Sequence record: PQ571306
Origin: Shigella phage phiSD1
DNA: 42,072 bases
Reading direction: 5' to 3' (one strand)
A program made the translations under genes and the position numbers. A model generated the notes under the pieces. The model had not been told where the DNA came from and did no database searches. It worked only from the letters and a program-made list of their open reading frames with translations. Below are positions 17,808 through 20,405 of this stretch, piece after piece (position 1 is the stretch's first letter; each line of letters opens with the position of its first letter).

Positions 17808-17839
17808 TTGTTCCTCTCCTCTCGTTTGGTATGGGCTAA

Positions 17840-17868
17840 CTATAATAGCGAACTATTCACATGTCAAT
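17840..17868 (-). promoter_or_regulatory. Sigma70-type promoter TTGACA-N17-TATAGT (leftward early promoter)
   Basis: Consensus hexamers; 25-nt leader to strong RBS. Confidence 0.6.
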
Positions 17869-17872
17869 GGGC

Positions 17873-17911
17873 TTTTCTAAAATAATTAATATGGTACTAT
17901 TCACATATCAA
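17873..17911 (+). promoter_or_regulatory. Promoter/operator region for Cro-like gene (TACTATTCACATATCAA; -10 TACTAT)
   Basis: Second copy of ACTATTCACATNTCAA about 43 bp from the first; RBS aaggag follows. Confidence 0.4.
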
Positions 17912-17931
17912 CCGACTAAGGAGTAATTGAC

Positions 17932-18147
17932 ATGCAACCATCTGAACTAGGCATCCGCGTAGAACAACGCCGCAAAGAACTCGGCATCTCACAGCGCCGT
18001 CTGGCTGTCCTGGCCGGCGTTTCCCAGGGCGCAATTAACCAGCTGGCACTTGGAGTAACTCAGGACGTCCGCCCGGCAACGCTGTTTAAACTTGCGGAAG
18101 TGCTGCAAGTAGACGCTAAGTGGCTGGCGTTCGGTGAAGGGGCTTAA
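17932..18147 (+). CDS. XRE-family HTH transcriptional regulator (Cro/CI-like), 71 aa
   Basis: LGISQRRLAVLAGVSQGAINQL helix-turn-helix signature. Confidence 0.7.
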   Translation: MQPSELGIRVEQRRKELGISQRRLAVLAGVSQGAINQLALGVTQDVRPATLFKLAEVLQVDAKWLAFGEGA

Positions 18148-18162
18148 CGCCCCTTTCTTTTT
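18136..18162 (+). terminator. Rho-independent terminator after Cro-like gene
   Basis: ggggc-ttaac-gcccc followed by tttcttttt. Confidence 0.6.
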
Positions 18163-18164
18163 AC

Positions 18165-20405
18165 CTATTCCAAATCCTCCTCTGTAACCACCAGCATTTC
18201 ATTTGGTTCGTATATTGTCTTCGGTCTTAATCTGTCACCCATCTTTTCCGGTATCCGGTATGTGCCTGGCATAACTTCACCGTTAACATCGCACCCGAGC
18301 ATCAACTCCCCGTCTTTCAGCATCTTCTCGAGATGGTGGTTGGTGATGGCGTGGTCGCCCGAGTTCGCTACTATCTGCCGTTGGGTAAAACCTCGTCCGG
18401 TGTCGTCAGACTGTTGCAGGTCTTCCAGCGCGGCGAGTATGGATTCCTTACGTCCTCCATCCTTCCCGCGTTTTACGGCATTCTTTACGTTTTCTTTACC
18501 TTCCTTTGCCAGCCCTTCTTCCCGCTCTTTCTCCTCGTCAGTTTTGAACGGCTCGAAGCCCCACGGCATCAGCACAAGCGCCTTGTGCGGTTCCGGCAGG
18601 TCGAGGTTTACGATTGTGCCGTATTCCTCTGTGCTACCGAGGAACTCAACCGCACGGTACTCTTTCGGTGGTGGCGCTTCACGGAACTGTACCGACTCCA
18701 GCACCATGCCAACCGTCTTCTGTTGAGGCCCATGCTTAAATTTAGAGTGGTATACGTTTATCTGACGGTCAGTGGCGCGTTCGATTGTCAGTTCCACGTC
18801 GACGCCCGCATACAGCGCCCCACTACCGCGGGCTTTCTTTCCACCCTTCGGTGTATGGTGGACGACGCCCACCGCGGCTTTAGTCGCATCACGTACTTCT
18901 TTCAGGATGGCGATAACTTTACCCATACCGATTGCCGTTGATGAGCTGTTCTCGTCGAACTTATCAATCGTCAGGGCCAGGGTCTGGTTAAGGGTGTCGA
19001 ACGCGACCATGCCGATAGGTTCATCGCCCGCAGTTTCGCGCATTAACTTAATCAGGCTTTTAAGTTTGCCGACTTCGCCCATGTCGATGACGTGTACATA
19101 ATCTTTACCCTCTGCGCCGTATTTAGCCGCGAGCGCGTCAATACGTGTACGTGTGGCTGCGCCCCCCTCACCGTCGATATAGAAGTGGTGGCAACGCTGC
19201 GTGTCAGCGCCAGCAAACCGGTATCCGGCGGCGCTGAGATACATCATACCCAGCGTATAGAATGATTTGTACGTGCCTGATTCCCCAACAATATCCCATA
19301 TGCAATCCGACGGCATGTACCCTTCAACGACGAAATCAGCCTTTACCGGTTCCGGCAACTCGCCCTCCTCTGAGTCTTCGTCATCTTCCAGGTCGTCAAG
19401 GCTGCATGAAACGGACTCCCGCGCGCCCCAACCGATAGCCTCTGCCACCTCACTGAATGGCAGCCCAGTTGCATCGCACGCATACTTCCACACCTCTTTC
19501 GGAGACATGCCTTCAGTTGTCGTAATGTCGGTGTCATGAATCATTGTTACGTTCGGCGCTTCATACCCCTCACGCGGGAAGCATAGCAGGAAGTCGTCCG
19601 GGCGAGGGGTCGGGTCGCTGTAGTTCTCTGCGTGTTCTGGTGTAGCTGGCATCTTAAGGCCGCGTGGTGTCATGATGCCGCCGTATTCAAACGCCAGTGC
19701 CTCGAACGCATCGGTAAACACGGTGCGCAGTTCTTCCGGTATCTGGTAATCCGATGCGCTGCTAACGTCAACGGCGGGGATGCCTTCCAGTAACTCGTCC
19801 GGGTCAATCAGGTCGTTGCGACGCGACCAGATAACGGTAGAGCCAACTGGCGGCAGGTACATCGGCTGGGACAGGGTAAAACCGCTGCGGTCGGCGCCCA
19901 TACCTTTGAAGAAGTGTTCCAACAATCCATGGCGAACGCGGATGATGTCGCCGCCTTCAACAGGGTGGCCCAGCGGCATGACGACGCGAAAGCGCGGGGA
20001 CTCATCGGTATGTGATGCCGTGGTATAGAGACACATAGCCCGGCGGCTGCGCTTAACCAGGCGCACCGCTTCCTGATACTCTTCCGGCGTTGCGTTGTCG
20101 AAGTCCAGATACGCCAGCGACGATTTGCTTACAGACGCGTCGCAGCGATAGAAAAAGCCTTTACGCGCCTGCTTAAAGTCTCCTGTTTCCGGGTCTTTTA
20201 CGGTGCTGTGCGTCGAGTCACACGCGGCAGTGATATAACCGGGCGCGGTCTTCGGGTTAATCCCATCACGAACAGCATCGAGCGGCTGGGTTAACTCTTT
20301 CAGGTCGTCCAGTGTTGCCGTGTGTGTAGTTCTGACGTTTATATCCTTTTTCTCTGCCCGCGCGTTGCGACGAGACCACGAGTAGGATAAAATTACATCG
20401 GACAT
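18165..20405 (-). CDS. Primase-helicase (AEP-type prim-pol N-domain + RecA-like ATPase)
   Basis: YLDFDN (DxD) and SHTDE...RFRVV motifs; Walker A GESGTYKS; 746 aa. Confidence 0.6.
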   Translation of the reverse strand: MSDVILSYSWSRRNARAEKKDINVRTTHTATLDDLKELTQPLDAVRDGINPKTAPGYITAACDSTHSTVKDPETGDFKQARKGFFYRCDASVSKSSLAYLDFDNATPEEYQEAVRLVKRSRRAMCLYTTASHTDESPRFRVVMPLGHPVEGGDIIRVRHGLLEHFFKGMGADRSGFTLSQPMYLPPVGSTVIWSRRNDLIDPDELLEGIPAVDVSSASDYQIPEELRTVFTDAFEALAFEYGGIMTPRGLKMPATPEHAENYSDPTPRPDDFLLCFPREGYEAPNVTMIHDTDITTTEGMSPKEVWKYACDATGLPFSEVAEAIGWGARESVSCSLDDLEDDEDSEEGELPEPVKADFVVEGYMPSDCIWDIVGESGTYKSFYTLGMMYLSAAGYRFAGADTQRCHHFYIDGEGGAATRTRIDALAAKYGAEGKDYVHVIDMGEVGKLKSLIKLMRETAGDEPIGMVAFDTLNQTLALTIDKFDENSSSTAIGMGKVIAILKEVRDATKAAVGVVHHTPKGGKKARGSGALYAGVDVELTIERATDRQINVYHSKFKHGPQQKTVGMVLESVQFREAPPPKEYRAVEFLGSTEEYGTIVNLDLPEPHKALVLMPWGFEPFKTDEEKEREEGLAKEGKENVKNAVKRGKDGGRKESILAALEDLQQSDDTGRGFTQRQIVANSGDHAITNHHLEKMLKDGELMLGCDVNGEVMPGTYRIPEKMGDRLRPKTIYEPNEMLVVTEEDLE

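Follow-up and report, generated by a model that had tools for sequence, protein, structure and literature searches.

Among the systems described so far, those closest to the element considered here are the Cro protein and the repressor of phage 434 and the C2 repressor of phage P22. In the P22 operators two arms of 5 bp enclose a centre of 4 bp that is not contacted (TTAAG-N4-CTTAA), and the dyad AATAG-N4-CTATT that figures prominently below is laid out in the same way. In the genus Kagunavirus a PHIRE 'phage promoter' consensus, tgAATAGTa-ccTATTat-T, has been listed in seven copies for phage fBC-Eco01, and the AATAGT...CTATTAT motif was there credited to a phage-encoded RNA polymerase (PMC9825357). 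Here we consider Shigella phage phiSD1 (sequence record PQ571306; the whole stretch of 42,072 nucleotides is referred to as the window) and in it a gene for a Cro-like helix-turn-helix (HTH) protein of 71 amino acids together with the 124-bp region upstream of it, in which an earlier note made from the sequence alone had seen a Cro-type autoregulatory switch with duplicated binding sites. Hundreds of records already annotate the gene, and as a predicted promoter the motif is in the literature as well (PMC9825357); what is added here is that the dyad occurs in two sigma-70 registers, that the proximal of the two repeats belongs to a leftward promoter, P_L, and the distal one to the predicted promoter of the HTH gene, that the unusual orientation of the gene looks like the outcome of an inversion, and that the assignment of the dyad as operator of the Cro-like protein is doubtful.

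The sequence ACTATTCACATRTCAA occurs twice upstream of the HTH gene, with 44 bp from start to start and a gap of 28 bp, so that the earlier note was right about the two direct copies and slightly off in placing them about 43 bp apart. The first copy, ACTATTCACATGTCAA (17852-17867, plus strand), is composed of the dyad arm ACTATTCA, a variable CA and TGTCAA, the last being the reverse complement of the P_L -35 hexamer, and its minus strand reads TTGACA-TG-TGAATAGT, that is, the -35 and the first part of the P_L spacer. The second copy, ACTATTCACATATCAA (17896-17911, plus strand), covers the -10 and start region of the predicted HTH promoter. When up to three mismatches are allowed the 16-mer has four matches in the window against 0.43 expected, a number reached in none of 100 shuffles, and the repeat extends to 25 nucleotides at 84% identity; the two other near matches are likewise found at promoters, one at 15736 covering a -35 and spacer and one at 21320 where a rightward promoter has its -10 and start region. 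ACTATTCA, which is common to both copies, is one arm of AATAG-N4-CTATT. The proximal dyad, AATAG-cgaa-CTATT (17844-17857), occupies the P_L spacer and the edge of its -10 with its centre at about -18.5, and a distal, degenerate dyad with one mismatch, AATAT-ggta-CTATT (17888-17901), overlaps the predicted -10 of the HTH gene.

P_L (17839-17867, minus strand) reads TTGACA-17-TATAGT, a match in 11 of 12 positions, with the -35 at 17862-17867 and the -10 at 17839-17844, which bears out the strong leftward early promoter that the earlier note had placed upstream of the gene. It is preceded by an AT tract, ATTAATTATTTTAGAAAA (17873-17891, minus strand, about -41 to -59), which in exact register matches 15 of the 17 specified positions of the published UP consensus (Estrem et al. 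1998), is nearly invariant among relatives and probably serves as the UP element of P_L; at the level of sequence, the 17-bp spacing and the A/T tract between -40 and -60 are those of a sigma-70 promoter with an UP element. It is this UP-like element that separates the two repeat copies. On the opposite strand the extended -10 TGg-TACTAT (17892-17900, plus strand), with a start predicted near 17907, probably constitutes a weak rightward promoter of the HTH gene, and the orthologous site of phage SETP3, of the genus Jerseyvirus, is a full TTGCAC-17-TACTAT promoter of the class designated B below, located 30 nucleotides upstream of its HTH gene. Together these two observations indicate that the two 'sites' are the cores of back-to-back promoters, P_L pointing leftward and the HTH promoter rightward. 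An alternative rightward promoter, TTCACA-16-TAAAAT (10 of 12 positions; 17856-17883, plus strand), overlaps the P_L spacer and UP element. The distal copy was also considered as a second leftward promoter (TTGATA-18-AATTAT, 9 of 12 positions), but a rightward HTH promoter was thought the more likely reading, since the Jerseyvirus site is a perfect rightward TTGCAC-17-TACTAT and since the invariant centre TGGT fits an extended -10. A 9-bp inverted repeat, CATGTCAAT/ATTGACATG, that joins the P_L -35 with the HTH start codon was taken as chance, its arms being only partly conserved in relatives, and host sites for CRP, IHF, ArgR and Fur were looked for by eye against consensus sequences, with no formal test, and none fitted.

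The window phage is a virulent siphophage of Kagunavirus type, and for the stretch 17300-18700 there are 436 matching phage records (80-96% identity), all from the Guernseyvirinae genera Kagunavirus (Escherichia phages) and Jerseyvirus (Salmonella phages). The conservation of the upstream region was assessed on 37 distinct upstream sequences, obtained from the window, two relatives in GenBank and 36 loci of Kagunavirus in IMG/VR. No variation is seen in the dyad arms or in either P_L hexamer, and next to none in the whole stretch extending from the P_L -35 as far as the HTH start codon. The centre of the proximal dyad takes six forms and the distal dyad is invariant with its centre included; conserved arms around a variable centre are furthermore found at four other dyad promoters. 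Since invariant arms with a variable centre look like a dimeric protein-binding site and go beyond what RNA polymerase alone would need, this pattern suggests that the dyad is bound by a protein, and as judged from these comparisons the promoter-embedded dyad is under selection at both promoters. The 16-mers are not conserved as units: both are kept in eight of the 36 loci, and the two or three bases that separate CTATTCA from TGTCAA and form the middle of the proximal 16-mer take ten forms and change in length. The 16-mer was accordingly rejected as an operator, its middle being hypervariable, and since the arm that the two copies share belongs to a dyad found in about ten promoters, the duplicated sites cannot be upheld as the local operator pair that had been proposed.

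With at most one mismatch the 14-bp dyad AATAG-N4-CTATT occurs 12 times in the window, where about one occurrence is expected, and its nine exact copies compare with an expectation of 0.04; no other 5-mer dyad is enriched. The sites are found at 115-128, 12156-12169, 15728-15741, 17844-17857, 17888-17901, 21312-21325, 22265-22278, 22581-22594, 25242-25255, 33855-33868, 33946-33959 and 42046-42059, the last being a duplicate of the first. The dyad sits inside about ten promoters of sigma-70 type and does so in two registers. In class A, TTGACA-N4-AATAG-N4-CTAT-TATAgT, the dyad centre is near -18.5, and the three perfect copies, against 0.00 expected, all point leftward into the replication module, one upstream of the SNF2 helicase block inside the leftward module (12153-12179, minus strand), one upstream of an SSB-like gene (15725-15751, minus strand) and one at P_L (17841-17867). 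Of the sigma-70-type promoter classes in the genome, this one is judged the strongest. In class B, TTGCAC-17-TACTAT, the dyad is reversed and overlaps the -10, its centre being near -12.5, and four copies are found against 0.15 expected. Promoters of this class are located at 21296-21324 (plus strand), facing the rightward small-gene block and listed as a PHIRE 'phage promoter' in fBC-Eco01, at 22565-22593 (plus strand), at 116-144 (minus strand), where the bases recur at the window end, and in a TTGCGC variant at 33856-33884 (minus strand). The motif thus lies between -35 and -10 hexamers of sigma-70 type, and neither an RNA polymerase gene (SETP3 and Ro145c2YLVW) nor a sigma factor is annotated in the relatives examined.

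Three of the dyad sites, 105-150, 33842-33890 and 21296-21340, look bidirectional, with a class B promoter and a good -35 in one direction and, in the other, a -10 in the class A register (TATATT/TATTAT) lacking a good -35. At 105-150 and 33842-33890 the opposite strand faces tail or head genes, namely tail genes at the former and head genes at the latter. Since the opposed promoters overlap fully, binding of RNA polymerase to the two should be mutually exclusive, and they could in this way form a switch between early and late transcription.

The HTH gene itself (17932-18147, plus strand) is monocistronic, and its product is, as the earlier note had it, a 71-residue HTH protein of XRE type, which matches Pfam HTH_3 over profile positions 2-55 of 55 (E 1.2e-12, 48.1 bits, cut-off 23). 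The best match among PDB sequences is 434 Cro (1zug/2cro; E 4.9e-7, residues 6-68 aligned), followed by the N-terminal domain of 434 cI and by P22 C2 (E 0.003). The AlphaFold2 (AF2) model, with a pLDDT of 84, has five helices at residues 5-17, 21-28, 32-39, 48-57 and 62-66, and its top fold match is again 434 Cro (2cro; 40% identity, TM 0.72-0.78), with 434 repressor, HipB and then SinR further down and restriction-modification C proteins at ranks 10-17. Both the full-domain profile match and the five-helix bundle, with helix 2-turn-helix 3 as the HTH unit, place the protein in HTH_3, and it is homologous to 434 Cro as a small protein of one domain. 'Cro-like' is hence a fair description of the fold, and the gene probably encodes a compact regulator of one domain that belongs to the 434 Cro/CI type of DNA-binding protein. 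It is not part of a lambdoid switch. At this locus there is no divergent cI partner and no immunity region of a temperate phage, the divergent neighbour being a 165-residue acidic protein followed by replication genes, and in place of three adjacent dyad operators between the divergent promoters there are two dyads, one of them degenerate, 44 bp apart.

The other anatomical claims of the earlier note stand. No other gene of the leftward module lies on the plus strand, either in the window or in an annotated close relative and SETP3, and the gene has its own intrinsic terminator (18136-18162, plus strand), consisting of a hairpin at 18136-18156, with the HTH stop codon in the loop, followed by TCTTTTT; the terminator, a hit of the scan, would be effective in the plus direction only, and in SETP3 a terminator is annotated likewise after the HTH gene. 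A Shine-Dalgarno sequence, AAGGAG (17918-17923, plus strand), read directly from the sequence, lies eight nucleotides before the ATG and is kept in Kagunavirus, in Jerseyvirus and in the Salmonella phage STP-1, which represents a third lineage of Guernseyvirinae. On the minus strand the same hairpin forms at 18136-18156 without a U-tract, and since moreover neither the terminator scan nor minus-strand folding predicts a leftward terminator at the end of the primase-helicase gene (18165-20405, minus strand, Pfam AAA_25), leftward transcripts from that gene can probably read antisense through the HTH gene. By tblastn the HTH protein is matched in 567 phage records, the Guernseyvirinae ones having it at the same position where checked, and the gene is present in essentially all relatives, under annotations such as 'transcriptional repressor', 'DicA-like' and 'HTH domain protein'.

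P_L would drive an operon that encodes p165, a DUF2800 nuclease, SSB and DNA polymerase, the first gene being that of the 165-residue acidic protein (17310-17807, minus strand; PHROG 3127), a homologue of which adjoins the HTH gene in SETP3 and in STP-1. SETP3 has the identical arrangement, with an HTH protein that is 52% identical. In STP-1 the HTH protein is 39% identical and its gene heads a rightward operon that runs into primase-helicase and then the rest of the genome, while still being divergent from the p165/DUF2800/SSB/polymerase operon. When STP-1 9970-13161 is set against window 17310-20897, the primase-helicase block is co-directional with the Cro-like gene in STP-1 only, and in Kagunavirus and Jerseyvirus the block is inverted and headed by an HTH_17 gene and a gene for a 77-residue protein, both of which are absent from STP-1. 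The layout of STP-1 therefore suggests that the 'antisense inside the operon' position of the Kagunavirus and Jerseyvirus gene arose when the primase-helicase block was inverted. A 45%-identical HTH protein of Klebsiella phage klb_E was uninformative, as this phage shares no other genes of the replication module and has no dyad.

The HTH gene and the divergent P_L thus stay adjacent in three lineages of Guernseyvirinae in spite of the inversion, and as a conserved unit they argue for a local regulatory role. This bears on the notion that the protein has its target off the phage altogether, for instance in operators of the host or of a resident prophage, where it could block prophage induction or a competing phage, so that its adjacency to P_L would be meaningless. 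Such a target is suggested by the weak similarity (34-43% identity) of the protein to the N-terminal domains of CI repressors from Stx, Mannheimia, Erwinia and other temperate phages and by other genes of temperate-phage type in Guernseyvirinae, such as Ant in SETP3 and Nin proteins, but the divergent pairing with P_L survives the inversion and no host operator was identified, and we consider it very improbable.

What we tentatively favour, with a confidence somewhat short of even, is that the Cro-like protein is a local repressor of the divergent pair formed by P_L and the HTH promoter. The HTH gene would be transcribed rightward from the weak extended -10 at 17892-17900, possibly also from TTCACA-16-TAAAAT, up to its own terminator, from a promoter that is back to back with P_L and overlaps its upstream part. 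Early in infection, loading of RNA polymerase on P_L and leftward read-through from the primase-helicase operon would keep expression of the gene low; the protein would then be made, probably at middle times, accumulate, and bind as a dimer somewhere in 17840-17910 within the 124-bp region, and the bound dimer would turn down P_L as well as its own promoter, as Cro does. The two dyads would be the obvious candidate operators, as their 14-bp length and N4 centre suit the fold. A local repressor is supported by the fold, by the anatomy of promoters and terminator, by the divergent arrangement in three lineages, by the class B site of SETP3, by the near-invariant region and by the presence of the gene in relatives. 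RNA sequencing (RNA-seq) of the Kagunavirus K1B4 furthermore classed the Cro-like orthologue as 'middle', which lends weak support, since the time course is coarse, and its sampling at 5-120 min is too coarse to show a shut-off of the P_L operon (PMC12645636).

Several observations count against this reading, or at least against the dyads as its operators. For both promoters the start sites, near 17832 for P_L and near 17907 for the HTH gene, are predictions only, the 16-mers vary as described above, and the dyad, being present in about ten promoters, is not specific to the region upstream of the HTH gene. In addition the recognition helix reads SQGAINQ in Kagunavirus and SQSLITH in Jerseyvirus, a difference at four positions, while the dyad arms are identical, and STP-1 keeps the Cro-like protein without any enrichment of the dyad, carrying instead a related, non-symmetric AATACTnnnCTAAT in five copies against 0.7 expected. 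In Kagunavirus, Jerseyvirus and STP-1, then, recognition helix and dyad arms do not change together, and on the whole the comparative evidence weakens the case for the dyads as operator of the Cro-like protein. Intermediates were sought in order to follow the covariation of helix and dyad, but in every homologue of 77-86% identity the Kagunavirus helix is retained, which leaves only three informative lineages.

The same observations bear on a more far-reaching role of the protein, namely that it binds AATAG-N4-CTATT at about ten promoters and as a global regulator times most of the phage transcription. The over-representation of the dyad, the invariant arms and variable centres at every orthologous site, which are the usual footprint of a dimeric site, and the two dyad copies that flank the promoter of the gene itself would all agree with this, and a 14-bp dyad with a 4-bp centre suits an HTH dimer of 434/P22 type. 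Set against this are the four changes in the recognition helix over unchanged arms, the Cro-like protein of STP-1 that goes without a dyad, and an HTH_17 protein that tracks the dyad better, although the comparison of lineages that yields these objections covers only three of them; we regard such a global role as unlikely. Equally doubtful in our view is the corollary that the Kagunavirus/Jerseyvirus clade times nearly its whole transcription by way of one dyad read by the Cro-like protein, as a genome-wide Cro switch. If it were true, the protein would shut the strong promoters, including its own and P_L, and thereby free RNA polymerase for the opposing late promoters that lack a -35.

The HTH_17 protein just mentioned (20694-20897, minus strand; Pfam, PHROG) is excisionase/MerR-like and probably comprises 56 residues from an ATG at 20864. 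If this early protein of 56-67 residues, or another factor, bound the dyads, the repeats near the Cro-like gene would belong to the dyad promoters like any others, and the Cro-like protein would recognise a different, lineage-specific sequence within that intergenic region or outside it. The HTH_17 protein is 81-89% identical between the dyad-bearing genera Kagunavirus and Jerseyvirus and absent from the dyad-less STP-1, and its own promoter, TTGATT-17-TATACT, has no dyad. Its distribution over the lineages thus follows that of the dyad more closely than does that of the Cro-like protein, which is suggestive, with the proviso that there are three lineages only and that the co-occurrence hangs on a single discriminating one. 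Small HTH_17 proteins of Xis/AlpA type are not known as typical binders of 14-bp dyads, and a search for lineage-specific dyads in the intergenic regions of Kagunavirus, Jerseyvirus and STP-1 found no alternative conserved operator for the Cro-like protein, which speaks against such a division of labour. The HTH_17 orthologue is classed as 'early' in the K1B4 data, as would fit a factor acting on later promoters (PMC12645636), but all in all we find it improbable that the dyads belong to this protein or to another factor.

Some further features of the window deserve mention. Two different dyad promoters are followed by one and the same leader, AACGAGAGGAGAG, a long tract resembling a Shine-Dalgarno sequence (on the minus strand at 17815-17827 and on the plus strand at 22605-22617), and similar leaders follow promoters in SETP3. 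A 12-bp tandem repeat of TGGTGTAACAGG (3.1 copies, 96% matches) at 22227-22263 begins where a small gene has its stop codon and borders on the dyad at 22265-22278; the array looks like iterons, and the region is common to only eight of the 37 Kagunavirus relatives searched. Between the leftward HTH_17 operon and the rightward small-gene block there is a gene-poor stretch of about 450 bp (20898-21349), which holds a strong terminator-like hairpin on the plus strand (21203-21223) and otherwise only doubtful small open reading frames, and which might hold a small RNA or an origin. Three 8-mers, CAACGGCA, ACGGCAAC and ACGGCATC, are each present in 14-18 copies in the window, which exceeds the expectation 7-10 times, with a modest excess on the plus strand; CAACGGCA is also enriched in SETP3 and ACGGCAAC in STP-1, and the excess could arise from codon or peptide bias. 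The first 141 nucleotides of the window (1-141) are an exact repeat of the last 141 (41932-42072), which implies a genome of about 41.9 kb (approximately 41,931 bp) and suggests that the assembly was closed into a circle or overlaps at its ends.

Neither integrase nor CI was found among the 17 open reading frames of the window that were scanned against Pfam, and neither is annotated in the close relatives examined (SETP3 and Ro145c2YLVW). An integrase is likewise not reported in the fBC-Eco01 paper (PMC9825357), and the earlier note's description of a genome without integrase or CI is in agreement with all of this. The point is of practical weight, since Kagunavirus and Jerseyvirus phages are among the most often isolated candidates for therapy and biocontrol, in which a 'repressor' annotation repeatedly raises the question of lysogeny and safety. 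Phages of this type are also being adopted as chassis for synthetic biology (BASEL paper). Such annotations may be read in the light of what is found here, a stand-alone Cro-type domain with no CI, integrase or immunity region beside it and paired with the promoter of a replication operon. The promoter-embedded dyad is the more useful lead, as it offers a handle on the order of gene expression in a small virulent siphophage. Data on gene essentiality from the CiPGr paper were set aside, as they concern Skatevirus, which belongs to another group.

Of the known systems with which the locus can be compared, the C proteins, such as C.AhdI and C.BclI, have the small HTH_3 fold and autoregulate through paired sites before their own gene, but there are no restriction-modification genes near the Cro-like gene, and a reading of the region, with no pattern search run, showed no C-boxes of the form GACT-N3-AGTC. 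The dispersed operators of P1 C1 and the 'stoperators' of mycobacteriophage L5 gp71 likewise place one short motif at many promoters or intergenic sites of a genome; the analogy is a functional one only, as these proteins maintain lysogeny and bind asymmetric sites, unlike the dyad of a virulent phage that is found here. The N-terminal domain of the P22 C2 repressor (2r1j, 3jxb) has the same fold as the Cro-like protein with a weaker sequence match (E 0.003), but the half-site sequence differs, and C2, the product of a temperate phage, has a C-terminal domain in addition. The PHIRE motif of fBC-Eco01 is the same as the dyad and has one annotated copy in the HTH upstream region of that phage (PMC9825357), but here the dyad is assigned to sigma-70-type promoters in two registers, and the orientation at the HTH site differs from the published one. 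The closest parallel remains 434 Cro (2cro, 3cro, 1zug), together with the N-terminal domain of 434 cI. Sites of the form ACAA-N6-TTGT were not seen on reading the region, for which no pattern search was run, and the locus differs from that of 434 in having no partner cI, immunity region, integrase or tripartite OR/OL operators and, in Kagunavirus and Jerseyvirus, in that the gene is transcribed alone and runs antisense to the operon around it. The likeness lies in the length of 71 residues, as in Cro, in the five-helix HTH_3 fold at about 40% identity and in the single domain without a C-terminal dimerisation or cleavage domain, and it extends to gene order in STP-1, where the HTH gene comes first in an early operon leading to replication genes, as does cro in the lambdoid phages.

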